Assembly: GCA_037143195.1 (NCBI GenBank)
Contig: JBAWZD010000001.1
Location: forward strand, 272,892 to 336,891
DNA length: 64,000 bases
Reading direction: 5' to 3'
Source of the DNA: a bacterium
GTDB lineage: Bacteria > Patescibacteriota > Minisyncoccia > Phycocordibacterales > UBA9973
A model generated the notes under the pieces. It was not told the DNA's origin and made no database searches. It saw nothing but the letters and a program-made list of their open reading frames with translations. A program made the translations under genes and the position numbers. This document shows positions 3,612-43,240 of this stretch, one piece after another (within the stretch, counting starts at the first letter, position 1; each line of letters opens with the position of its first letter).

Positions 3612-4031
3612 GTGCGGATTATATGCTAATCCGTCGTATATGTAAAAGTGCCTGCCATTTCCCGTAGGAAATGGCAGGCACACTTAATTATTCTCCGGAC
3701 TATTTGGCCCGAAAAATGGATGATCTTGCTCAACCTTGTCACGAGCGAGCACATTTTTAAAAAAAATAAACCAGCATGTACACACAACGGTAAAGATACA
3801 GAAACCACATATCACCGTTGCCATGGTATGCCCCTTGAAGAACGAAAATAATTGTGCTATTTTCGTAATTATTATGGTGGCTCCTAATGACATGACGAAG
3901 GTCAAAGGAAGCACTCGTTGCAAGTTCCTCATAAATTTGGTTTTCAAAACTGTAAGTAAAATTACATACTTTGTCAACCACCCGCTACCCTCTGTTCCAG
4001 ATAGGGTGACTTCGTGCTTTAATGGCGGTAT

Positions 4032-22279: not shown

Positions 22280-25200
22280 GTGAAAAAATCACTACTTTTG
22301 ATGGTAGCGCTACTATGCTGCTGCCTTCTGTCCCCTCCCACTGCGAGCGGACAACTCACAACGATTCCGAGCTTCTCAGTAAGCCCGACGACAGTGTGCA
22401 TGTTCCAGCCGGTTCTGCCGGTGAACACCACTGTAACCGTAGCAGGTCATCGCTACGCCTATTACTGGAATTACGACTACGGTCGACCAACGAGTGACAA
22501 CACTCGCGACCCTCGTGGTCCAGTAATTTTTACGTACCCTGGAGCACCATATATTTCGATTATGGTGCACGACAGTGATGCGTACGGAGGTGCCGGGGGG
22601 GATTATTACTATCGGCAGAGCATCACGGTGCTCGATTTGCCGACAGCAACTATTGAAGCAACGCCGCGAAGTGCAGCGCTCAATTGTATTGCTGACAGTG
22701 TTATTTTGGTGGCAACACCATCTGACACTCTTGGCCACATTTTGTGGACTAGACCCACTGGGTTTACGGACACAAACGAAACAATTGCTGCTCGAACAAG
22801 CGGCAATTACCAAGTAATTGCCACCGACAGGCACGGTTGTTCTTCCAATTATCCGACATCAATTTGGGTAAACGGAGGAACACCAGTACATGTCGATCTG
22901 GCATTAGCCACCAGTTACGGTGGGATTATCAGCACAGACACAAGCGTCTCTGTCTGCTCGAGTGATGGACGCATTTTGCAACCAATTGTCAGTGGAGCCA
23001 TGTGGCCAATCACCTACAACTGGAACGACGGAAGTACAGCGAGCACTGACCCAATAGCCACTTCTGGCTACTATTGGGTTAAGCTCACAGATGCAAATGG
23101 ATGTATAGGTCGCGACACAATCCATGTGACGCGAAACATTACTCCGCCAAACACTATCACTCCAAGCACCTCAGCCACACTGTGTTCCGGTGATTCTCTG
23201 ATTCTCAGAGTCGCATCAGGATACAGCTATAGCTGGAGTACATGGAGTGGCGTAGTATCCACTTCAGATTCCGTAATTGTAACGAGTTCAAATTATTACT
23301 CAGTACAAATCAACGGATTGGGTGGCTGCAACGCCACGAACACCTACAACGCGAACTTCAATGCAGCGCCAACGCCCAGCATCGAAATATTCCCGAATGT
23401 AGGAGTGTCACATAGTGGACCAATCGACACAGTGCGTATATGCTCGAACGCAAGTTCAAGTATGTACGCAAGTAGTGCAGTGTATTCAACGACACTTCAC
23501 TATGTGTGGAACACTGGCGACACAACTGCCAATCTTCCTCTCCGCAGTGGAGGATTAAAGAGAGTAACGATAACAACAGCTGAAGGATGCAGCGCATCCA
23601 AAAGTATTTTTGTTGTTATGTACTCTGCACCTGATAGTAGCTATACATTAAGTAACCTTGGTCCATTATGCGACGGGACGACACAAGTTGTACGTCTTCG
23701 TCGCGCACCAGGAAACAGCTACACATGGAGTACTGGAGGTATTGCCGATTCGGCGATACTGACGAGTTCAGCAACCATCACCGCGGTTATAACCTCTGCA
23801 AGAGGTTGTATGAGTCCCGTGACGTACACAGCGGTGTTCAATGCAACACCGCACCCTGTCGTTTCGGCAGGACCATGCAGTATGGAAGCTGGAACGATCA
23901 CATCTGGCAACAGATATCAGTGGTCTACTCCAACGGGGATAATTCCCGGTGCAACAAGTGCATTTTATGGTGCAACAACTGGAGGTTTTTATTCCTACAA
24001 GGAAACAACTCCCTTAGGTTGTAACGCGACAGCCACAATGACCTACATTACCTGTGGTGGAACCACAGGTACAGGAACAAGTACTGATAGTGTACATGCG
24101 TACTTCGCAGAAGACGCAACACTGTCATGCGGTACAGGATATTTACGAGTGACGAATCTCTCGACGGCAATCTTGCCATCAAGGTTAAAGTATTTCTGGT
24201 CATTCGACGGTGGCACTCCTGCTACTTCAAATCTTCAGAATCCGCCACCGATTCTATTCAGCCCTGGATTACATTTCGTGAACCTTGTCGCTCGCGACAC
24301 CGTAAACGGAAGTACCAGTACGTATTTGGGATCGTTCATCGCAGACACCCTAAAAATCCGTGCGTATGGTTACGCACCCACAACAGGCCGGACAAGTTTC
24401 GACACACTTCCTGTTTGTCCAAACGACTCGGCTTGGGTTGGTGCATTAATCTACGCCGGAGCAGGCGTAAGTTATCAGTGGAACAACGGCGACAGTAGTG
24501 CACGTTTCGTGCCACACGCAAGTGGTATGTACTCAGTGCATGTTACTGACAACCGCGGTTGTTCAGCTGATGATAGTGTGTATTTAAGCGTAAGCAATTT
24601 TCCTGACAGTAGTATTACGAGATCATCACTTAGTAATATATGTGCAGGAGACACATTACGGCTTTCGCTCCACACTGGTAATAGTTACCAGTGGAACACG
24701 TACGACACTACGAGTAGTATCGGAGTCACAACTCCTGGATATTATTCAGTACGTATCATGAACAGGTTTGGTTGTGTTTCGCATGCAAATGCAAACATAA
24801 CGTTTAACCCAAAACCAATTCCAAGCGTCACCGTTTCGGGTGCACGATTTAGTTATGGAATTTTTGACACCGCACATGTTTGTGCAAACGCCAATCCTTC
24901 CATCTCAATCGCGCCATCGGGGATGACGTATCATTGGAACACGGGAAGTTCGTTCTCGAATTTTCCTCTCACAGTTAACGGTGTTTACACTGCGACAGTG
25001 ACGAATTCATACGGCTGTAAAGCCGCAAGTAATCCTGTGTATGTAAACATACACTCGTCGCCTGACAGCTTAATCACGGTAACAAGAGTAAGTGCATGCA
25101 TGGGCGACAGCATCTCTCTCGGACTTTCCCCTGGCAACTCATATAGTTGGAGCACAGGAGAAAGAAGTAACGGAATTAATGTTTTTACCTCTGGCACTTA

Positions 25201-26449
25201 TTCTGTAACGGTAACAACAGATGCTGGCTGTGTAAGTCATGCAACGAAGTCTGTAACGTTTAATCCACTTCCAAATGTAACAATCGGAATATCTCCGATG
25301 ACGCTGTATACATTTGGTGGCGGGACTGATACCGCTCATGCGTGTAGCAATACGCACGTGAACATATCAGCAACAACGGGGACTGGTAACACTTACCAAT
25401 GGAATAACGGAAGCACTTTTTCAAGCTTCCTCATTCCACTGAGTGGGTTGTATACGGTAACAGTGACGAATACGTATGCTTGCTCCGCTTCGGCGCAAGT
25501 GTACGTAAACATACACTCTGCTCCAGATAGCATCATCATGCCGTCGAAAGTAAGTGTTTGTAAAAATGACACACTGATTTTATGGTTGCCTTCCGGTAAC
25601 CATTATCTGTGGAATACAGGAAGCGATAACGATTCAATCATGGTGTTTGATAACGGAATTTTTTCCGCAACAGTTTCAAACATATATGGTTGTGAGTCTC
25701 ACACGCTACCATATACCGCTACCTTCCATTCGATACCAAAACCTGAAATTGCAGCATCCAGTTGTAATCTCAGTTTGTTATCGATAGCAAGCGGATCTAC
25801 GTATCAATGGTATGAAGGATCGAATCCAATCTGGATTAACGCCTCGTCATACATTGTTACGGCAAATGATTGGTACTCAGTCGAAGAAACAACAAGTGAA
25901 GGATGCAGAAATCGCTCGAATTCAATTTTCGATTCCGCATGTGTAATCCCCATTCCAATTGATTCGTGCAAGTCGTTCCCGATCCAGAGTCCAAGCATAG
26001 TTATAGACGTTACAAATTGCATGCTTGGATGCAGTAGTAAATATACGGTGGATTCCTTCGTCTGGACTCGCAGTGGCATATTCTTGCCCGCAACAGACAC
26101 ACCGTATATCAGTTCTTTTATAAACGGGCTCTATCAAGTCACCGTTTACGATACCCGTGGATGCAGTGCGACATCAGAATTAATTTCTGCTGGTTGTGTG
26201 CAAGACACAACTCATGCACCAATTAATTTTGATGTGTATCCAAATCCGTTCTCTCAACATGTGACAATCACATGCGATAGTACATTTTCTGTCCTCGTAT
26301 TTAATATGCTAGGACAAAAGGTCCTAGAGACCATGGAAAATAATGGTGTGACACTCCAAACAGGGCAATGGCGCCCTGACACATACTTCATTGTTGTCGG
26401 CAATCGCTTCGGCGTTGTCACAACAAAAAAAGTTGTGAAAACAAAATAA
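22280..26449 (+). CDS. Giant secreted repeat protein with T9SS (Por) C-terminal sorting domain
   Basis: GTG start after a TTGACA-17-TAGAAT promoter; signal peptide; about ten ~95-aa SprB/Ig-like repeats (C..D...L....G.SY.W.TG...GCxS); last ~75 aa match the por_Secre_tail pattern (VYPNPFS...GQKV...GQW.PDTYFIVV...KKVVK). Confidence 0.85.
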   Translation: MKKSLLLMVALLCCCLLSPPTASGQLTTIPSFSVSPTTVCMFQPVLPVNTTVTVAGHRYAYYWNYDYGRPTSDNTRDPRGPVIFTYPGAPYISIMVHDSDAYGGAGGDYYYRQSITVLDLPTATIEATPRSAALNCIADSVILVATPSDTLGHILWTRPTGFTDTNETIAARTSGNYQVIATDRHGCSSNYPTSIWVNGGTPVHVDLALATSYGGIISTDTSVSVCSSDGRILQPIVSGAMWPITYNWNDGSTASTDPIATSGYYWVKLTDANGCIGRDTIHVTRNITPPNTITPSTSATLCSGDSLILRVASGYSYSWSTWSGVVSTSDSVIVTSSNYYSVQINGLGGCNATNTYNANFNAAPTPSIEIFPNVGVSHSGPIDTVRICSNASSSMYASSAVYSTTLHYVWNTGDTTANLPLRSGGLKRVTITTAEGCSASKSIFVVMYSAPDSSYTLSNLGPLCDGTTQVVRLRRAPGNSYTWSTGGIADSAILTSSATITAVITSARGCMSPVTYTAVFNATPHPVVSAGPCSMEAGTITSGNRYQWSTPTGIIPGATSAFYGATTGGFYSYKETTPLGCNATATMTYITCGGTTGTGTSTDSVHAYFAEDATLSCGTGYLRVTNLSTAILPSRLKYFWSFDGGTPATSNLQNPPPILFSPGLHFVNLVARDTVNGSTSTYLGSFIADTLKIRAYGYAPTTGRTSFDTLPVCPNDSAWVGALIYAGAGVSYQWNNGDSSARFVPHASGMYSVHVTDNRGCSADDSVYLSVSNFPDSSITRSSLSNICAGDTLRLSLHTGNSYQWNTYDTTSSIGVTTPGYYSVRIMNRFGCVSHANANITFNPKPIPSVTVSGARFSYGIFDTAHVCANANPSISIAPSGMTYHWNTGSSFSNFPLTVNGVYTATVTNSYGCKAASNPVYVNIHSSPDSLITVTRVSACMGDSISLGLSPGNSYSWSTGERSNGINVFTSGTYSVTVTTDAGCVSHATKSVTFNPLPNVTIGISPMTLYTFGGGTDTAHACSNTHVNISATTGTGNTYQWNNGSTFSSFLIPLSGLYTVTVTNTYACSASAQVYVNIHSAPDSIIMPSKVSVCKNDTLILWLPSGNHYLWNTGSDNDSIMVFDNGIFSATVSNIYGCESHTLPYTATFHSIPKPEIAASSCNLSLLSIASGSTYQWYEGSNPIWINASSYIVTANDWYSVEETTSEGCRNRSNSIFDSACVIPIPIDSCKSFPIQSPSIVIDVTNCMLGCSSKYTVDSFVWTRSGIFLPATDTPYISSFINGLYQVTVYDTRGCSATSELISAGCVQDTTHAPINFDVYPNPFSQHVTITCDSTFSVLVFNMLGQKVLETMENNGVTLQTGQWRPDTYFIVVGNRFGVVTTKKVVKTK

Positions 26450-26467: not shown

Positions 26468-26550
26468 AAAAAAGCCCCGGCAATGTCGGGGCTTTTTCAT
26501 ATGTCAGGATCGTTTCAATACAAACAAAAAACCGCTTACGTACTACGTAA
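26468..26550. terminator. Pair of facing rho-independent terminators
   Basis: aaaaaagccccggcaatgtcggggcttttt (for the + gene) and ccgcttacgtactacgtaagcgg (for the - gene). Confidence 0.7.
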
Positions 26551-27105
26551 GCGGGGAATGTCTTTTAATGCTCCGAGCGGGATCACCTCAACACCTCTTG
26601 TTTGTTTAAAGAACAAGTGCCAAGAATTATCAACTGCGATTTCAGGGTCGTACGAAATACCGAAATATTCATACACCGTATAATCTTGTTTTTGATGAAG
26701 CAAGGACAGATCCAAAATCCTTCCTTGATACAGGATCCAACTGTGGCTTGAGATTACGTACATATAATTACAAACCCTTTCAACGGCATACAGGCCGGTA
26801 ACAACCTGAAAATCAGCCCCAGTCTTGCCATTGTTTAACAAAGTCTTCGCGTGCAACATTGTGTTCGCGTGACAATATTTATCCTGAAAAAAAATCGGCA
26901 AGATACCGTCTGGATAGACCGTCCAAACATCCATGGGCATATACGATTTTCGGTATTGTTTTGCTAGACTGATAAGATCAGATGGCTCAGTCCGAGGTGG
27001 GAGCTGTTCAAAATATTTTTTAATTTCAAACCTTTCTGGCGAATACGCCACTGGGAAGTCCCGATGATGCAACTGCTCAAAAGTTACGATATTCTTTTTT
27101 ACCAT
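26536..27105 (-). CDS. Hypothetical protein
   Basis: 189-aa ORF, no family recognised. Confidence 0.45.
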   Translation of the reverse strand: MVKKNIVTFEQLHHRDFPVAYSPERFEIKKYFEQLPPRTEPSDLISLAKQYRKSYMPMDVWTVYPDGILPIFFQDKYCHANTMLHAKTLLNNGKTGADFQVVTGLYAVERVCNYMYVISSHSWILYQGRILDLSLLHQKQDYTVYEYFGISYDPEIAVDNSWHLFFKQTRGVEVIPLGALKDIPRLRST

Positions 27106-27214
27106 AGCGTGTGTTTTTTCTTCAATCTACATTATATTTTAATATTGTCAAATATATCATCCCTGATATAAAGTTGTTCCTGTACATATCGCTAGAAAAG
27201 CCTAGTATGAACAC

Positions 27215-28081
27215 ATGAAAAACTCTTGGATATACGGAGGTATTGTATTCGGTATCCTGCTCGTCGTTTTTGGTATTTCGCGATATGAACATAGTGGTGC
27301 GCCAGTCACGAATGTATTGCCAGCAATCGTTACTCCCGAGACGCCACCTGAGACTCCCCCAGTTACCCCGCCAGTCGTAGACTCGACTCCTGTCTCGCAC
27401 TATATTGAAATTACGGGTGGGTGCGATTGGAAATTCACTGGCTCATGCGTGAACGTGCGATCAGGCGCTGGTACGCGCTACGGCGTCGTCATGCGTCTCC
27501 GTGCTGGCATTGTGCTCCGTGTAGAGCCAGAGGCAGTCGCAGGAGATGGATTCAATTGGTACAAAGTCATTCAAGACAAACAACTCTGGCATCCAGAGCG
27601 AGTGAAAAGCGATTGGTATGTGGCGAGCGATGCTGGCTTCGTGATGCACTTTACTGATCCAGGTGACATACAAATCAATGCAAGCGAAGTGACTCCTCCG
27701 ACCAACAAACGCATCGTAGTCAATCTCACCAAAGAAACCCTCATGGCATACGATGAAGACCAGCTTTTCATGGAAGAATCAATCTCCACGGGCATCGAGG
27801 CGAACCCAACGACGGCGGGAAAATTCAAAATTTTTCGAAAAACGCCGAGCCGATACATGCAAGGACCACTCCCTGATAGTGACATCACTGAATCATACGA
27901 CTTGCCCGGTGTCGCGTGGGACATGTACTTCACGGCCGATGGATCTGTCCTCCATACGGCATATTGGCATGATAGTTTTGGAGAGCCGATGTCTCACGGA
28001 TGCATCAACCAACGCGCCGAAAATGCACGAACATTGTATGCATGGGCAGATTTGGGCACACCGGTAGTCATTGAAGAATAA
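27215..28081 (+). CDS. L,D-transpeptidase (YkuD domain) with N-terminal TM anchor and SH3b-like domain
   Basis: C-terminal catalytic motif ...HTAYWHDSFGEPMSHGCIN (His / SHGC); Pro/Thr linker; SH3b-like segment GCDWKF...NWYKV. Confidence 0.8.
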   Translation: MKNSWIYGGIVFGILLVVFGISRYEHSGAPVTNVLPAIVTPETPPETPPVTPPVVDSTPVSHYIEITGGCDWKFTGSCVNVRSGAGTRYGVVMRLRAGIVLRVEPEAVAGDGFNWYKVIQDKQLWHPERVKSDWYVASDAGFVMHFTDPGDIQINASEVTPPTNKRIVVNLTKETLMAYDEDQLFMEESISTGIEANPTTAGKFKIFRKTPSRYMQGPLPDSDITESYDLPGVAWDMYFTADGSVLHTAYWHDSFGEPMSHGCINQRAENARTLYAWADLGTPVVIEE

Positions 28082-35976: not shown

Positions 35977-36990
35977 TTAACTGAGCAGTTCGGGTTCTGG
36001 CTCAATACTGATTCCGTACTTTTCTTGGACAGCATCTCTGATTTGGAGAATGACGTCACTGAGTTCAGCTCGTGTACCTCCGCCTTCGTTCACAATCACC
36101 ATTGCATTGCCTTTGTAGAGCGAGAAATTGCCGATACGTTTGCCTTTCCAGCCCATCGTATCGATGAGCGAGCCGGTGCCCACTTTGGCGGTCGCAGTGT
36201 CGACATCATAAATCGCAAGTGTTGGGAAATCTGCACGCAATTGATTTGCTTTTTCAATCGGCACAAAACTATTTTTAAAAAATGAACCGACCGACGCGAC
36301 CTCTTTTGGATCAGGAAGTTTCTTGGTGCGAATCGCAATGATTGCGTTTCGAATATCTTCGAGGCTTGCTGCGCGGATATTGTGCTCGGCGAGATAGTCG
36401 GCGACTCCTGGGTATTGTGGAACGTCGGGGAGCTCGCGCGATAGCGCGAGCGTAATCTCAGTGATGACGTACCGCCCCTTGCCTGCGTTTTTGAAAATAC
36501 TGTCTCGATATCCAAATTTACATTCTTTGTTTGAAAATACAACCATCGATTTGGTCCACAAATCGTACGCTCGAAGCGACGTAAGCACATCACGAATTTC
36601 CGTTCCATATGCTCCAACATTTTGCACGGGAGTCGCTCCAGCAGTCCCCGGAATCCATGACAATGTCTCGATACCAGACAAATCGTTTTCCACAGCAAAT
36701 GCTACAACTGAATCCCAGATCTCACCTGAACCAACGACAAGTGTCGTCTCATCAACAAGGCGTTTTCCAAGGATTTGCGGTCGAATGAGCGTCATGTCGA
36801 GATCGCCATCAGGGAAGACAATATTTGAACCACCGCCAAGCAAAAACCACTTTTCGTCTTGTGGCATAAGGCGAAAAACCTCTTCGAGATCAGCCTCTGT
36901 TGTAACCGTAACAACTTCTCGGGCCGTTCCTCCGATACGAAACGTAGATAATTCACGAAGCGGTACATTGTATTCTCGCGTGATTGACAT
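35977..36990 (-). CDS. murB: UDP-N-acetylenolpyruvoylglucosamine reductase
   Basis: FAD-binding N-terminus (LSTFRIGGTAREV...LLGGGSNIV), MurB C-terminal domain; divergent from murA. Confidence 0.85.
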   Translation of the reverse strand: MSITREYNVPLRELSTFRIGGTAREVVTVTTEADLEEVFRLMPQDEKWFLLGGGSNIVFPDGDLDMTLIRPQILGKRLVDETTLVVGSGEIWDSVVAFAVENDLSGIETLSWIPGTAGATPVQNVGAYGTEIRDVLTSLRAYDLWTKSMVVFSNKECKFGYRDSIFKNAGKGRYVITEITLALSRELPDVPQYPGVADYLAEHNIRAASLEDIRNAIIAIRTKKLPDPKEVASVGSFFKNSFVPIEKANQLRADFPTLAIYDVDTATAKVGTGSLIDTMGWKGKRIGNFSLYKGNAMVIVNEGGGTRAELSDVILQIRDAVQEKYGISIEPEPELLS

Positions 36991-37027
36991 ATTGCAAATA
37001 TATCATATATGAGATATTATTTCCACT

Positions 37028-38545
37028 ATGGCAAAAACAAAAGATGATCAGGAAAAGATTGGTTTGTTTATCAAAAACCTCCGCGAAGAGCGAGGTCTCA
37101 CCCAAGCAGAATTCGCAAACGCACTCAATACCTCACAAAGCGCCGTTGCTCGCATGGAAAAAGGCGAACAAAATCTCACTGTCGCAAACCTCGCCAAAAT
37201 TAGCGAGCTCCTCGGTCGACAGATCCTCTCACTCTCAAAAAGTATGGATTTTGAAGTGACTGGTGGTCGTGAACTCAAAGGTAGTATCCGTACCAACTAT
37301 TCCAAAAACGGAGCGATCAACATGCTCTGTGCTTCCCTACTCAACAAAGGCAAAACAATTCTTCACGGAATTCCACGCATTGAAGAAGTATTTCGCTATA
37401 TCGAAATCATGGAGTCGCTCGGTGTCGCAGTACGCTGGATTGAAAAAGATACTCTCGAAATCATTCCACCAACGAAACTCACTTTTGATCGCATGAATCT
37501 CGAGTCTGCGCGCAAGACACGTTCATTCACATTCGTCGGAGCGCTCATTCACTGGCAGAAATCATTCTCATTCCCGCATTCTGGTGGATGCAAAATGGGC
37601 GAACGCACCATCGCCGCACACAAATACGGTCTCAGCAAATTTGGAGTGAATATTAAAACACTTACTGATAGTTACGATATCCGTTACAAGAAACTCAAAC
37701 CAGCAGAATTTGTACTCTACGAATCAAGTGACACGGGTGCTATTGGTATGCTCATTGCAGCCGCAGGGATTGCTGGCACTTCAATCATCCGCTTTGCTCC
37801 ACCGAACTACCAAGTTCAGGATGTGTGTTTCCTGATTGAAAAAATGGGAGTGAAGATTGAAGGCATTGGCACGACAACACTCACTGTGCACGGCCGCGAA
37901 AATATCAATGAAACGATCGAGCACTGGAACAGTGAAGATCCGATTGAATCAATGTTCTTCCTCTCAGCGGGAATCGTCACCAAGAGTTCGCTCACTGTCA
38001 CTCACTGCCCTATCGAATTCATCGAACTTGAAATCGAAAAGCTTCGCCAAATGGGAGTGAAGTTCAAGATGAGCAAGTCATACAAATCAAACAACGGACG
38101 CACCACGCTTCGTGATATTTCTGTCTCACCATCAAAGCTCATCGCTCCGCTTGAGAAATTGCACGCACAGCCATTCCCGGGAATGCAAAACGACAATCTT
38201 CCGTTCTTCGTACCAATCGCTACGCAAGCCAAAGGCACAACGCTCATTCATGACTGGACATGGGAAAATCGTGCGATCTACTTTACCGAACTCAACAAAC
38301 TTGGCGCGAATGTTCGTCTCGTTGATCCACATCGTGCATTCATCGAAGGACCAACGAAGCTCCGCGCAGCCCAAATCGTTTGCCCACCAGCACTTCGTCC
38401 ATCTGCGGTCATTTTGATTGCCATGCTCGCAGCCGAAGGCACATCGGTACTTCGCAATGTATATTCGATCACTCGTGGCTACGAAGAAATCGCCGAGCGT
38501 CTCAATGGTATTGGTGCACAGATTCGTGTCGTCAAAGGAATGTAA
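37028..38545 (+). CDS. murA: XRE-family HTH domain fused to UDP-N-acetylglucosamine 1-carboxyvinyltransferase
   Basis: aa 1-65 are a typical Cro/C1 HTH (LTQAEFANALNTSQSAVARMEKGEQNLTVANLAKISELLG); aa ~73-505 align end-to-end with MurA (FEVTGGRELKGSIR.., catalytic Cys loop SGGCKMGERTIAAH, C-terminal ITRGYEEIAERLNGIGAQIRVVKG); no stop codon between the two parts. Confidence 0.85.
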   Translation: MAKTKDDQEKIGLFIKNLREERGLTQAEFANALNTSQSAVARMEKGEQNLTVANLAKISELLGRQILSLSKSMDFEVTGGRELKGSIRTNYSKNGAINMLCASLLNKGKTILHGIPRIEEVFRYIEIMESLGVAVRWIEKDTLEIIPPTKLTFDRMNLESARKTRSFTFVGALIHWQKSFSFPHSGGCKMGERTIAAHKYGLSKFGVNIKTLTDSYDIRYKKLKPAEFVLYESSDTGAIGMLIAAAGIAGTSIIRFAPPNYQVQDVCFLIEKMGVKIEGIGTTTLTVHGRENINETIEHWNSEDPIESMFFLSAGIVTKSSLTVTHCPIEFIELEIEKLRQMGVKFKMSKSYKSNNGRTTLRDISVSPSKLIAPLEKLHAQPFPGMQNDNLPFFVPIATQAKGTTLIHDWTWENRAIYFTELNKLGANVRLVDPHRAFIEGPTKLRAAQIVCPPALRPSAVILIAMLAAEGTSVLRNVYSITRGYEEIAERLNGIGAQIRVVKGM

Positions 38546-38548
38546 TTT

Positions 38549-39715
38549 ATGAATATTCTCGCAATCGAAACTTCGTGCGACGAGACAGCCATCGCCATCC
38601 TCACGCGAAAAGGCAATCATTGCACTCTTCACGCGCACCAAGTCGCTTCACAAATCGCACTCCATACTCAATACGGAGGCGTATTCCCGATGATGGCGAA
38701 GCGCGAACATAGTCGAAATATCGTTCCGCTTTTCCTCGAAACGCTCAATGAAGCGGGAGTACTTGCTGATGCGAAAAAAAGTTCAGTATGGAAACCACGA
38801 ATCGTCGCAAAGCTTACAAAGCTTCTTGAACGCGAACCTGAAATGCTCGAACTTTTTCTGCGAGAAATTCCTCGTTTGCAAAAACCAAAAATCGATCGCA
38901 TCACGGTGACGGTCGGCCCAGGCCTTGAACCAGCACTTTGGGTTGGTATCAATTTTGCAAAGGCACTTTCGTATGCGTGGGACATTCCGCTTGTACCAGT
39001 CAATCACATGGAAGGGCACGTACTTTCTATTTTTCCTGAAGAATCAAAAAAAGAATTTACGATTTCAAAAATTGCGACTCCCGCTATTTCATTACTCGTT
39101 TCTGGTGGGCACACAGAGCTCGTACTTGTAAAAGGCGTTGGCAAATATGCTGTCGTTGGAAAAACACTCGACGATGCAGCCGGTGAAGCCTTCGACAAAG
39201 TCGCGCGCATGCTCGGACTTCCCTATCCAGGTGGCCCAGAAATTTCGCGCCTCGCAGAAAGTGTGCGCGACAGTATCAACCAAGGAGGGATCAAAAAAAC
39301 AATTTCACTCCCTCGACCAATGTTGCACGCTGACAATTTGGATTTTTCTTTTTCCGGACTCAAGACCGCAGTACTCTACCTCATCAAAAAACTCGGCGAC
39401 CTAAACGAAGCAACCAAAAAAGAAATCGCGTGCGAATTCGAAAATTCTGCCGTTGAAGTGCTCGTGGTAAAAACAATGAAGGCAGTGAAGAAATTCAAAG
39501 CAAAATCAGTTATCGTTGGTGGCGGAGTTTCGGCAAACAAACATCTTCGAAAAGTACTCACAGAAGCATGCAAAGAATACGGTGTCGAAGTGATCTTCCC
39601 AACCAAAACGCTTACAACCGACAACGCTATTATGATTGGTATTGCAGGCTCGTTCGGAAAGAAGGTTCGTAGTACCTCAAAAAAACTTCTCGCTAACGGA
39701 AATATGTCCCTGTAG
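38549..39715 (+). CDS. tsaD: tRNA N6-adenosine threonylcarbamoyltransferase (Kae1/TsaD)
   Basis: MNILAIETSCDETAIAI N-terminus, metal-binding His pair (HMEGH), ASKH-fold; begins 4 nt after the murA stop. Confidence 0.9.
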   Translation: MNILAIETSCDETAIAILTRKGNHCTLHAHQVASQIALHTQYGGVFPMMAKREHSRNIVPLFLETLNEAGVLADAKKSSVWKPRIVAKLTKLLEREPEMLELFLREIPRLQKPKIDRITVTVGPGLEPALWVGINFAKALSYAWDIPLVPVNHMEGHVLSIFPEESKKEFTISKIATPAISLLVSGGHTELVLVKGVGKYAVVGKTLDDAAGEAFDKVARMLGLPYPGGPEISRLAESVRDSINQGGIKKTISLPRPMLHADNLDFSFSGLKTAVLYLIKKLGDLNEATKKEIACEFENSAVEVLVVKTMKAVKKFKAKSVIVGGGVSANKHLRKVLTEACKEYGVEVIFPTKTLTTDNAIMIGIAGSFGKKVRSTSKKLLANGNMSL

Positions 39716-40513: not shown

Positions 40514-43240
40514 ATGCACAACGACAATAACATCCCCGAAAAACTCCTCAAACCTTACAGCGCCAAAGACACCGAATCTCGTATTTATGAAGCATGGCTC
40601 GACAGCGGATTCTTCAATCCCGATATCTGTGTTGAAAAGGGCGTCACCAAAGCCGACGCAGAGCCATTTTCAATGGTTTTGCCCCCACCGAACGTCACCG
40701 GGACGCTCCATACAGGACACGCGCTCATGCTCGTCATCGAAGACATCATGACTCGCTACGCTCGCATGCAAGGCAAGCGCACCCTTTGGCTCCCTGGTAC
40801 CGACCACGCCGCAATTGCCACACAGTCCAAAGTTGAAAAAATTCTTGAAAAAGAAGAAGGCAAACGCAAACAAGATCTCGGTCGCGAAGAATTCCTCGCA
40901 CGCGTCAACAAATTCGCGCAAGAATCTCACGACACGATCGTTGGTCAAGCAAAACGCATGGGTGCATCACTCGACTGGAGTCGTGAAGCATTCACGCTCG
41001 ACGCAACACGCAATCTCGCCGTTCGCACCGCATTCTCCCGCATGTACAAAGACGGGCTCATTTATCGTGGCCACCGTATCGTAAACTGGGACCCAAAAGG
41101 TCAGACAGTTATTTCAGATGATGAACTTGTATACGAGGAGCGCAAATCAAAACTCTACACCTTCAAGTATTCAAAAGACTTCCCTATTTCAATTTCAACA
41201 ACCCGACCCGAAACAAAAGTTGGCGATACGGCGGTTGCAGTTGATCCTACCGACGAGCGATACAAGCAATATGTCGGCAAAGAATACGATGCAGTATTTT
41301 GTGGCGTACCTATTCATATCAAAATAGTTGCAGACGAAAGTGTTGAAAAAGATTTCGGTACAGGAGCGCTTGGTGTTACTCCAGCGCACAGCCAAATTGA
41401 CGCGGAAATTGCTACGCGGCACAATCTTCCGACCATTCAAGTCATCAATGAATATGCAAAAATGATGATTGGAGGAGAAAATCTTCTTGGGAAAAAAGTA
41501 ACTGAAGCTCGGGAAACAATAGTGCAGTGGATTCGCGATGAAGGTCTGATGGAAAAGGAAGAAGATGTGACGCAAAATGTGTCGACCGCAGAACGAACTG
41601 GGGCAATCATCGAACCACTTCCAAAATTGCAATGGTTCATTAACGTAAACAAGCCGATTGCAGATCGAGGCAATAAAACCCTCAAGGAATTGATGCTTGC
41701 TCCAATCCGTGAAAAACAAATCGAAATTCTTCCCGACCGTTTCGAAAACGTGTACTACAACTGGGTCAACAATCTTCGCGATTGGTGTATTTCTCGTCAA
41801 ATCTGGTACGGACACCGCATTCCTGTATGGTACGACAAAGACGGTGCAATCCATTTGCCGAAGGAACGCCGTGTATTGCTCGCACGTCACGGTGAAAGCG
41901 AGGCAAACTCGCTTCGCTTGTTCGCCGGTGGCAAAAGTCAATCTCCACTCACCGATACCGGTCGCGCTCAAGCAAAAGAACTTGGGCAAAAACTGAAATC
42001 AGAAAATGTAACCAAAATTATTTCGTCAAATCTTCCTCGCGCTCGCGAGACAGCGGAAATCATTGCGCGCGAAATTGGCCTCGACCCACAATCAATCGAA
42101 GAATGGGCTGACTACCGTGAATATGAAGTTGGAGACCTCGAAAATACCCCCTGGCCAGAAAAAGGAATTCCATTCCGCACTGCAATAGAATCACAAAAAG
42201 GAGAAAATCTCGCGCAGATTGAACAGCGCGTTATTTCCGTATTCAAAAAACTCGAATCAGTTGAGACTGAGGGCACACTGCTCATGGTCGGACACAACGG
42301 ATTCAACTGTTGTATGAAGGCACATATTGAAGGCGTACAAAAAGAACGTTTCGTAGAATTCGCCGAACTGTGCACAATGGAAAATGCATCGACTCATGAA
42401 TTCATGCTCATGCACAATCCGAGCGGTGAAGGTCTCACTCAAGACGAAGACACACTCGATACATGGTTCTCCTCTGGCCTATGGACATTTTCCACACTCG
42501 GCTGGCCACAAAAGACACACGATCTCAAGATGTTCCATCCGACGTCTGTACTTGAGACTGGCCACGATATTATTTTCTTCTGGGTTGCTCGTATGATTTT
42601 GATGAGTACATACCTCCTCGGAGAAATTCCGTTCAAAACAGTCTACTTCCACGGGCTTGTTCGTGACGAAAAAGGCCGTAAGATGTCGAAGTCGCTCGGC
42701 AATATCGTTGACCCGATTACGCTCATCGACAAATATGGCACTGATGCACTTCGCATGGCGATGATCGTCGGTGTAGGTCCTGGCTCTGACAGCAATCTTG
42801 GAGAAGAAAAAATCAAAGCATATTCAAAATTCGCAAACAAGCTTTGGAACATCGCCCGTTTCGTTATGGAAAATACTTCCAAGCTCGACACGACCACGAC
42901 ACACACACTCGACACCGAAGATCAAGCAACGATTGATGAAATCAATGCTCTCCTCAAGGAAATCACAAAAGAAATGAACGAGTACAAATTCTATCTCGTT
43001 GCCGAAAAACTCTATCACTACACATGGCATACATTTGCCGACGTTGTAATCGAACGAAGTAAAAATAAAATCGCAAACGGAACAGGTTCAGAGTCAGCAC
43101 AACAAATGCTCGTCACTGCACTTCCCCTTTTGCTCCGCGCGCTTCACCCATTCATGCCGTACATTACTGAAGAACTTTGGAATACAGTGTATAATGAAAA
43201 GAATCTTCTGCTTGTAGAAGAGTGGCCATGCAAAATCTAA
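40514..43240 (+). CDS. valS: Valyl-tRNA synthetase carrying an inserted histidine-phosphatase (PGAM-like) domain
   Basis: HIGH motif (LHTGHAL), CP1 editing motifs (TTRPETKVGDTAVAV, GTGALGVTPAHS), WCISRQIWYGHRIP, KMSKS; between WYDKDG and QDEDTLDTWFSS lies a ~195-aa block with RHGESEAN...PLTDTGRAQA...SSNLPRARETAEII...VGHNGF (His-phosphatase superfamily motifs). Confidence 0.9.
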   Translation: MHNDNNIPEKLLKPYSAKDTESRIYEAWLDSGFFNPDICVEKGVTKADAEPFSMVLPPPNVTGTLHTGHALMLVIEDIMTRYARMQGKRTLWLPGTDHAAIATQSKVEKILEKEEGKRKQDLGREEFLARVNKFAQESHDTIVGQAKRMGASLDWSREAFTLDATRNLAVRTAFSRMYKDGLIYRGHRIVNWDPKGQTVISDDELVYEERKSKLYTFKYSKDFPISISTTRPETKVGDTAVAVDPTDERYKQYVGKEYDAVFCGVPIHIKIVADESVEKDFGTGALGVTPAHSQIDAEIATRHNLPTIQVINEYAKMMIGGENLLGKKVTEARETIVQWIRDEGLMEKEEDVTQNVSTAERTGAIIEPLPKLQWFINVNKPIADRGNKTLKELMLAPIREKQIEILPDRFENVYYNWVNNLRDWCISRQIWYGHRIPVWYDKDGAIHLPKERRVLLARHGESEANSLRLFAGGKSQSPLTDTGRAQAKELGQKLKSENVTKIISSNLPRARETAEIIAREIGLDPQSIEEWADYREYEVGDLENTPWPEKGIPFRTAIESQKGENLAQIEQRVISVFKKLESVETEGTLLMVGHNGFNCCMKAHIEGVQKERFVEFAELCTMENASTHEFMLMHNPSGEGLTQDEDTLDTWFSSGLWTFSTLGWPQKTHDLKMFHPTSVLETGHDIIFFWVARMILMSTYLLGEIPFKTVYFHGLVRDEKGRKMSKSLGNIVDPITLIDKYGTDALRMAMIVGVGPGSDSNLGEEKIKAYSKFANKLWNIARFVMENTSKLDTTTTHTLDTEDQATIDEINALLKEITKEMNEYKFYLVAEKLYHYTWHTFADVVIERSKNKIANGTGSESAQQMLVTALPLLLRALHPFMPYITEELWNTVYNEKNLLLVEEWPCKI

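Follow-up and report, generated by a model that had tools for sequence, protein, structure and literature searches.

An XRE-type helix-turn-helix domain fused to MurA in a Patescibacterial genome, and a putative palindromic operator at the murA and murB promoters

The gene considered here lies in a 64,000-nucleotide stretch of contig JBAWZD010000001.1 from a Patescibacterial genome (hereafter the window) and joins an XRE-type helix-turn-helix (HTH) domain in frame to MurA, the UDP-N-acetylglucosamine (UDP-GlcNAc) 1-carboxyvinyltransferase, which performs the first committed step of peptidoglycan synthesis and is the target of fosfomycin. On the opposite strand, and divergent from it, lies murB, recognized by the NCBIfam model PRK00046 (315.7 bits against a cutoff of 277), while tsaD follows in the same direction as the fused gene (Table 1). 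The initial annotation of the window, made by reading the sequence without any database search, had described an HTH running without a stop codon into a complete MurA with an intact catalytic Cys loop, and had placed murB 37 bp away on the opposite strand. All three observations are borne out: one 505-residue frame carries both domains as judged by Pfam and NCBIfam, the Cys loop is complete, and the gap between murB and the fused gene is indeed 37 bp (36991-37027).

The N-terminal part of the protein matches Pfam HTH_3 at residues 15-65 (E = 6.3e-14; 52.2 bits against a cutoff of 23), and the remainder matches Pfam EPSP_synthase at residues 78-492 (E = 4.7e-40) as well as the MurA subfamily model PRK09369 over residues 74-502 (NCBIfam; 311.8 bits, above the cutoff of 297). 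Solved MurA chains in the Protein Data Bank (PDB) align from query residue 71-80 to approximately residue 504, leaving the first 70 residues uncovered by any of them, and the best solved-structure matches for residues 8-63 are the small XRE repressors C.BclI (2b5a) and 4ia8; no solved structure in the PDB combines the HTH and MurA parts. An AlphaFold2 model, computed as a monomer from a 72-sequence alignment, has a mean predicted local distance difference test score (pLDDT) of 85.9, a predicted template modelling score (pTM) of 0.80 and a confident MurA fold. Its N terminus forms a four-helix fold (helices at residues 5-21, 26-32, 37-44 and 52-62) with block-mean pLDDT values of approximately 77-84 over residues 11-50 and lower values in the last helix, and this is followed by a stretch predicted to be disordered (residues 64-71, pLDDT below 50). 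The peptide TSQSAVARME, at residues 35-44, contains the recognition helix. PRK08154 (NCBIfam), a model related to the regulator BzdR, also matches residues 9-73, weakly. A type II antitoxin of the HipB/Y4mF/MqsA type was considered and rejected, as TIGR03070 and TIGR03830 score below their cutoffs (47.2 against 71.65 and 24.5 against 61.8, respectively) and the neighbours are murB and tsaD, with no toxin gene.

Table 1. Features of the HTH-MurA locus in the window, with the operator sites of three distant fused relatives (aa, amino acid residues of the fused protein; nt, nucleotides)
Feature	Position	Strand	Remarks
HTH-MurA fusion gene	37028..38545	+	505 aa, one uninterrupted frame; starts at the first ATG after a stop codon
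XRE/Cro-C1-type HTH domain, aa 10-65	37055..37222	+	Pfam HTH_3; AlphaFold2 helices
Recognition helix SQSAVARME, aa 36-44	37133..37159	+	Residue 36 is Ser in the window protein
Short flexible linker, aa 64-72	37217..37243	+	AlphaFold2 pLDDT; fixed spacing
Complete MurA (UDP-GlcNAc 1-carboxyvinyltransferase) domain, aa 74-502	37247..38533	+	NCBIfam; PDB alignment; AlphaFold2
Catalytic loop SGGCKMGER, aa 185-193	37580..37606	+	Cys188 codon TGC at 37589
Putative operator, 18-bp palindrome TATATCATATATGAGATA	36999..37016		17/18 match to the family consensus TATATCAyATrTGATATA
Predicted murA promoter, TTGCAA / 17-nt spacer / TATTAT	36992..37020	+	-10 box ends at 37020, 7 nt before the ATG
Predicted murB promoter, TGGAAA / 17-nt spacer / TG-extended TATATT	36997..37025	-	-10 box ends at 36997, 6 nt before the ATG
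murB (UDP-N-acetylenolpyruvoylglucosamine reductase)	35977..36990	-	Divergent from the fusion gene
tsaD	38549..39715	+	3 nt past the stop codon of the fusion gene; Pfam TsaD
Weak operator-like site TATATCATCCCTGATATA	27153..27170		10.2 bits; outer half-sites intact, centre different
Related locus L081, protein P0130			38% identity to the window protein; operator site TATATCATATATGATATT
Related locus L086, protein P0171			33% identity to the window protein; operator site AATATCAAATATGATATA
Related locus L087, protein P0122			50% identity to the window protein, GC-rich genome; operator site CATCTCATATGTGAGATA, 12 nt before the ATG

Within the catalytic loop, GGCKMGER aligns with GGCAIGQRPIDLH of PDB entry 5ujs. 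Residues Lys93, Arg165, Cys188, Arg193, Asp389, Arg415 and Arg457 align with Lys22, Arg91, Cys115, Arg120, Asp305, Arg371 and Arg397 of the Escherichia coli enzyme, whose roles we take them to share, and the protein thereby has the Cys115/Arg120 loop together with the equivalents of Lys22, Asp305 and Arg397. Across the 72 aligned homologues Ser185 to Gly191 and Arg193 are invariant and Glu192 is nearly so. The window protein, which passes the cutoff of PRK09369 but not the stricter one of TIGR01072, appears to be a divergent MurA of the type found in the candidate phyla radiation (CPR).

The fusion is not peculiar to this contig. Both domains are present in all of the at least 120 homologues listed (67-100% identity; 501-526 residues, with one of 679), which come from metagenome-assembled genomes (MAGs) labelled Paceibacterota, Parcubacteria or Pacebacteria, and so the ortholog comparison that the initial annotation had put forward as a check of the N-terminal extension comes out in its favour. 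In a scan of one genome per GTDB species, 112 relatives were found and 80 loci kept (58-98% identity), and every one of the 80 encodes the fused form (Nomurabacteria, Paceibacterota, Parcubacteria, Zambryskiibacteria and others). A protein identical to that of the window (100%) is encoded on a 451-kb contig of an NCBI MAG; with this and the conserved fused homologues, a sequencing or assembly artefact between the HTH and MurA parts, which the initial annotation had raised against itself, is ruled out. Compared in pairs, the 72 sequences are on average 67% identical in the HTH, 52% in the linker and 73% in the MurA part, and Gln37, Arg42 and Glu44 of the recognition helix are invariant; judged from this alignment, purifying selection acts on the HTH about as strongly as on the enzyme. 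The distance from the invariant Gly12 to the invariant Gly79 is 67 residues in 70 of the 72 sequences, i.e. the length of the linker is fixed. One MAG, CAYWEW01, has two fused HTH-murA genes on separate contigs (L053 and L055, with 64 and 63% identity to the window protein), through a true duplication or because the bin is mixed.

When the 60 nt 5' of each fused gene were lined up, an 18-bp palindrome became apparent, and in the window it falls within the 37-bp gap in which a search for an operator had been proposed. The window copy scores 27.9 bits, a level at which 0.01 matches are expected by chance. Of the 78 loci with a 5' flank, the window included, 77 have the palindrome within approximately 100 nt 5' of the fused gene, and it is present in all 77 of those that have both a 5' flank and an intact HTH. 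Half of its positions are invariant (2, 3, 6, 9, 10, 12, 13, 16 and 17; 9/18). The exact 16-mer core is found in 46 of the 80 loci, with 45 of the 46 matches situated just 5' of the fused gene and one elsewhere, whereas a first-order Markov control predicts that chance alone would give approximately 0.1 hits per 650 kb at 14 bits or more. At one locus (L006, 3954-3987) a perfect palindrome of 34 bp, TTGTCTAGTATATCATATATGATATACTAGACAA, with the operator as its core, lies between murB and the fused gene, and a different locus (L077) has two operator copies, at 3830 and 3902, 72 bp apart.

A promoter scan of 36850-37150 returned exactly two sigma-70-like promoters, divergent and overlapping, and no terminator-like sites were found in the same interval. 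The palindrome fills the spacers of both promoters and overlaps both -10 boxes. In 58 of the 77 loci 8-12 nt separate the palindrome from the ATG, the gap being pyrimidine-rich, and no Shine-Dalgarno sequence was found before the fused gene in the window or in the palindrome-to-ATG gaps across the loci. These data suggest that the murA and murB mRNAs are leaderless. Leaderless mRNAs seem to be common in this genome: a Shine-Dalgarno-like tetramer precedes only 5 of the 42 long open reading frames (ORFs) of the window, and 16 of the 42 have a TAnnnT box whose end lies 5-9 nt 5' of the ATG, compared with 6% of random positions. At the other end of the gene, tsaD begins no more than approximately 50 nt 3' of the fused gene in some 13 related loci and no more than approximately 800 nt in four more, and it is possibly co-transcribed with it. 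Divergent murB is present in roughly 27 of the 80 loci, where typically 8 nt separate its start from the palindrome; the operator 5' of the fused gene is the constant feature across the loci and the divergent murB is not. The earlier suggestion of a shared murB/murA promoter region is therefore upheld for the window, where the operator overlaps both promoters, but applies only to this fraction of the relatives.

The occurrence of the palindrome follows that of the HTH. It is retained in full in approximately 40 loci in which the upstream gene, often encoding an Nramp-like transporter, is co-directional with the fused gene, and because it is conserved there a bidirectional promoter does not explain it; we accordingly rejected the palindrome as a by-product of divergent promoters. 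We likewise rejected a generic promoter, as across the window and 650 kb of related loci the palindrome hardly ever occurs away from the fused gene. Of four distant fused loci three have the operator (Table 1), and two of these sites, those of L086 and L087, overlap the end of a co-directional gene. No site of at least 6 bits was found anywhere in the loci of the unfused enzymes P0121, P0123 and P0124 (60, 54 and 48% identity, respectively), nor in those of two relatives with a decayed HTH, L073 and P0125. The palindrome is thus absent from five of five loci without an intact HTH (nominal Fisher p = 2e-7, for loci that are not phylogenetically independent). A split arrangement, with a separate HTH gene 5' of unfused P0121, was discarded, as the ORF at that place, of 74 residues, does not encode an HTH and is separated from the gene for P0121 by a tRNA gene.

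Residue 36 of the protein co-varies with positions 5 and 14 of the operator. Where the operator reads TATATC (at positions 5-6) and has GA at positions 13-14, as it does in 55 loci, residue 36 is without exception Ser or Ala; the right half in these Ser/Ala36 loci is GATATA, or GAGATA in the subgroup to which the window belongs. The symmetric variant TATAGC..GCTATA, in contrast, occurs in 11 loci, and all 11 have Thr36 (in the context KTTQS); in a distant clade, L043 again combines Thr36 with a GCTATA right half. Residue 36 stands directly before the recognition helix (residues 37-44 in the AlphaFold2 model), in a region that we take to be equivalent to Thr27/Gln28 of the 434 repressor, which contact bases and the DNA backbone. 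The change at position 14 is not explained by RNA polymerase, because this position coincides with the n in the TGn extended -10 motif, where the base is unconstrained. The Thr36 loci fall in several separate groups of a neighbour-joining tree built from the MurA part alone (no support values), from which we would count two or more switches between Ser and Thr at residue 36 together with the operator. On this comparative evidence the palindrome appears to be the cognate site of the XRE-type HTH.

An exhaustive search of 50%-identity cluster representatives, followed by alignment, yielded relatives in four states. The window clade and P0122 are fused and have an intact catalytic loop. In P0130, P0132, P0135, P0136, P0142, P0171 and P0184, likewise fused, the Cys loop is destroyed. 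L073 and P0125 have an intact MurA with the HTH decayed and the operator gone, and the fourth state is plain MurA. The dead-enzyme paralogues keep the whole 430-residue MurA fold together with the HTH, with scores of 234.6 and 135.3 that are below the MurA subfamily cutoff of 297, and both of those with readable upstream DNA keep the operator. In the first of these (L081, 1-7503; also L082 and L083), the dead fused gene is the first of an operon that also contains a Mur ligase gene and ddl, the latter joined to a C39-like peptidase domain. A canonical, unfused murA-murB pair is transcribed away from it, and the operator lies in the 60-bp gap that separates them, between -35 and -10. In the second (L086, 2562-5467), the dead fused gene encoding P0171 directly follows a gene for a RelA/SpoT homologue; murB ends approximately 150 nt 5' of the RelA/SpoT gene, and it is the 3' end of the latter that the operator overlaps. 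As far as gene order and operator sites can tell, these relatives show that a protein made of an HTH and a MurA fold can be a dedicated regulator. Because the 430-residue fold was kept after catalysis was lost, it probably serves regulation, through either sensing or assembly.

Further copies of the operator, few in number but not randomly placed, point to targets beyond murA and murB. In four related loci a second copy, TATCTCAyATATGkTATA, abuts the start of murC (L075 at 2763, L078 at 2051, L079 at 2648 and L080 at 2662), the gene being identified by TIGR01082 (412.7 bits against a cutoff of 335). Operator-like palindromes are also seen 5' of a thioredoxin-reductase/AhpF-like gene (L026 at 251 and L046 at 261) and of a Nudix-hydrolase-like gene (L006 at 7954), and these may be either regulon members or convergent promoters. 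Six extra position weight matrix hits (L024, L026, L037, L052, L059 and L069) were set aside as coding coincidences, as each falls in the stretch of a minus-strand gene that encodes the N-terminal part of its product, with the peptide EYIxYDI. In the window, a weak operator-like site is located 45 nt 5' of a gene for an L,D-transpeptidase with SH3 and YkuD domains (27215-28081), divergent from an ORF at 26536-27105; the metagenome scan turned up one 50%-identical relative, at which the site is absent, and its status as a second operator is uncertain. From the distribution of these sites, the fused protein appears to control a small peptidoglycan-precursor regulon, which in relatives includes murC.

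Taken together, we consider it likely that the window protein is bifunctional, an active MurA and at the same time a repressor that would bind the palindrome at 36999-37016 and repress both its own gene and murB. We propose that the N-terminal HTH would bind the 18-bp palindrome, most likely as a dimer, and that the bound palindrome would occlude the overlapping murA and murB promoters; because it occupies the spacer and -10 box of each, binding should block RNA polymerase. The protein would in this way repress its own gene, with tsaD downstream, as well as murB, which together encode the first two committed steps of peptidoglycan-precursor synthesis, and the outcome would be negative autoregulation of that synthesis. 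An enzyme and repressor in one polypeptide acting on the murB/murA region is what the initial annotation had envisaged, and an operator that overlaps both promoters, tracks the HTH and co-varies with residue 36 argues in its favour. Somewhat short of an even chance, in our estimation, is the further step that the ligand state of MurA (UDP-GlcNAc, phosphoenolpyruvate or UDP-N-acetylmuramic acid (UDP-MurNAc)) modulates DNA binding, which would make the protein a true trigger enzyme. A shade more tentative is the fuller version, in which the open or closed state of MurA sets the affinity of the HTH and flux tunes murA, murB and, where it has the site, murC, with loss of the catalytic loop after duplication giving rise to CPR transcription factors with a MurA fold.

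Several points weigh against this interpretation. All of the support for it comes from computational and comparative sequence analysis. The window protein scores 296.1 bits with the murA equivalog model TIGR01072 (NCBIfam), below its cutoff of 392.7. Most MurA enzymes exist as monomers, whereas the proposed binding to a palindrome would most likely be as a dimer. The right half of the palindrome, TGATATA(c/a)T, is the generic extended -10 element of this genome, and part of the conservation of the palindrome is therefore promoter conservation. The co-variation between helix and operator may reflect only a few evolutionary events, on a tree without bootstrap support. Finally, the search for a second murA covered the window and the related loci.

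The alternative that best survives the evidence, although we hold it to be unlikely, is a plain negative autoregulator without metabolite sensing, in which the HTH would repress murA and murB to a degree set by the concentration of the protein, and in which the MurA domain acts as an enzyme, and perhaps in oligomerization, and its ligand state is irrelevant. The operator evidence is equally compatible with this, and the flexible, low-confidence linker of the predicted structure (residues 64-71) gives no sign of a rigid allosteric connection. The strictly fixed length of the same linker speaks for more than a passive tether, however, as does the retention of the whole fold in the dead fused paralogues, with the operator in the two that have readable upstream DNA, one of them beside a canonical MurA. 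In addition, MurA undergoes a large ligand-induced closure and binds UDP-MurNAc, a known feedback ligand, tightly.

We regard as improbable that the MurA-like domain of the window protein is itself a non-catalytic sensor, the real MurA being encoded elsewhere and the protein being a dedicated transcription factor. Pseudoenzyme versions do exist (the seven without a Cys loop), L081 has a separate murA, and the shortfall against TIGR01072 and the bounds of the second-murA search leave room for such a reading. In the window protein, however, the Cys loop and the other catalytic and substrate-binding residues are intact and invariant across the 72 homologues, the subfamily cutoff is passed that the dead paralogues fail, and a second murA was found neither in the 64-kb window nor, at any of the 80 related loci, within 4 kb. 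We infer from this that the window protein is probably catalytically active.

Marginally less probable again is that the palindrome is a promoter feature, formed by back-to-back extended -10 elements, or the site of another factor, with the HTH otherwise employed or vestigial. Boxes resembling TGATATAcT 6-8 nt before the ATG are generic here, their presence on both strands would generate TATATCA...TGATATA, and the window locus does have divergent genes. Against this, the palindrome persists in L086, L087 and the approximately 40 co-directional loci, occurs within 650 kb almost exclusively at the fused gene, is gone where the HTH is absent or decayed, and co-varies with residue 36 at a position that polymerase leaves unconstrained, while the HTH itself appears to be under selection of the same order as the enzyme. 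The least credible alternative, two products from one frame with MurA initiating at Met73 and the HTH translated separately upstream, was the fallback offered by the initial annotation and draws on an in-frame ATG at 37244 just before the MurA domain, but residue 73 is Met in only 11 of the 72 sequences (Ile in 53, Val in 5 and Leu in 3), no homologue has a stop codon or frame change between the two parts, their spacing is fixed, and no promoter-like or Shine-Dalgarno-like element precedes 37244. With the fusion conserved, the spacing fixed and Met73 variable, neither an internal start nor a sequencing error can serve as a general explanation.

Two other genes of the window are unusual. The first (40514-43240, plus strand) encodes a 908-residue class-I aminoacyl-tRNA synthetase resembling valyl-tRNA synthetase, with a His_Phos_1/PGAM-like domain at residues 454-617 (Pfam, E = 3.3e-33); this inserted histidine-phosphatase domain splits the catalytic domain in two. 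The second (22280-26449, plus strand) encodes a repeat-rich secreted protein of 1389 residues with a C-terminal Por_Secre_tail (E = 8e-9), a type IX secretion sorting domain typical of Bacteroidota in a genome that is otherwise Paceibacteria/CPR-like, and this could reflect either horizontal transfer or a chimeric contig.

The HTH-MurA fusion can be placed beside several known systems. Canonical MurA (E. coli and Enterobacter cloacae, 1uae and 1ejd; Campylobacter type, 5ujs) has the same two-domain fold and Cys115-type loop, and murB as a neighbour, whereas the window protein has in addition 72 N-terminal residues of XRE HTH and linker, which occur in no solved MurA chain, and a dedicated putative palindromic operator at its own promoter. 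With 434 Cro and repressor and the restriction-modification controller proteins C.BclI (2b5a) and 4ia8, the window HTH shares the helix pattern SQS..R.E.G. These small XRE repressors, which act as dimers on palindromes at promoters, likewise have a palindrome of approximately 18 bp, with half-site centres approximately 11 bp apart, overlapping -10 and -35 elements; they are stand-alone proteins of approximately 70-80 residues with their own dimer interface, however, whereas the window HTH is tethered to an enzyme of 430 residues. BzdR of Azoarcus sp., which acts as a repressor at a catabolic or biosynthetic promoter, consists of an XRE HTH, a linker and a shikimate-kinase-like effector domain. 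The window protein has the same order of parts, with the XRE HTH at the N terminus, a short linker and a domain with an enzyme fold at the C terminus. In BzdR the enzyme-like domain serves as a sensor and is not catalytic, in which respect BzdR is nearer to the dead fused paralogues (P0130 and others) than to the window protein with its catalytic residues.

Trigger enzymes with a DNA-binding domain are known in BirA (winged HTH and biotin ligase), PutA (ribbon-helix-helix, proline dehydrogenase and pyrroline-5-carboxylate dehydrogenase) and NadR (HTH and nicotinamide mononucleotide adenylyltransferase). By analogy the window protein would likewise unite, in one polypeptide, an enzyme of a pathway and the repressor of that same pathway, with an operator overlapping the promoter. 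The folds and pathways differ, and the switch by substrate or product that is known for BirA, PutA and NadR is for HTH-MurA something we infer. HTH-MurA would be a new example among the known enzyme-repressor fusions. Full-text literature searches found no published description of an HTH-MurA fusion, and the database names of fused proteins are only "UDP-N-acetylglucosamine 1-carboxyvinyltransferase" or "helix-turn-helix domain-containing protein". The initial impression of an unfamiliar MurA architecture thus holds for the literature but not for the genomes, as the fusion is common in Paceibacteria MAGs, where it has been annotated automatically and without comment.

MurA is a recognized point of control, through feedback inhibition by UDP-MurNAc and, in Firmicutes, through ReoM/ReoY-ClpCP proteolysis under PrkA. 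These mechanisms act on the protein, whereas HTH-MurA would act at the same control point on transcription, and through MurA itself. The proposal is unusually testable, as sequence analysis predicts the operator, the promoters and the specificity residue (Ser or Thr36 against T or G at operator position 5), and unfused enzymes, decayed-HTH relatives and dead-enzyme regulators are available as natural controls. To our knowledge almost no regulatory circuit has been described for the CPR/Patescibacteria, and an enzyme that doubles as a regulator would fit their tiny genomes with few regulators. If the proposal is correct, the relatives described here would document a progression in which an enzyme first became bifunctional and then a pure regulator, and an enzyme that is itself the transcription factor for murA, murB and murC would represent a new solution to cell-wall homeostasis.

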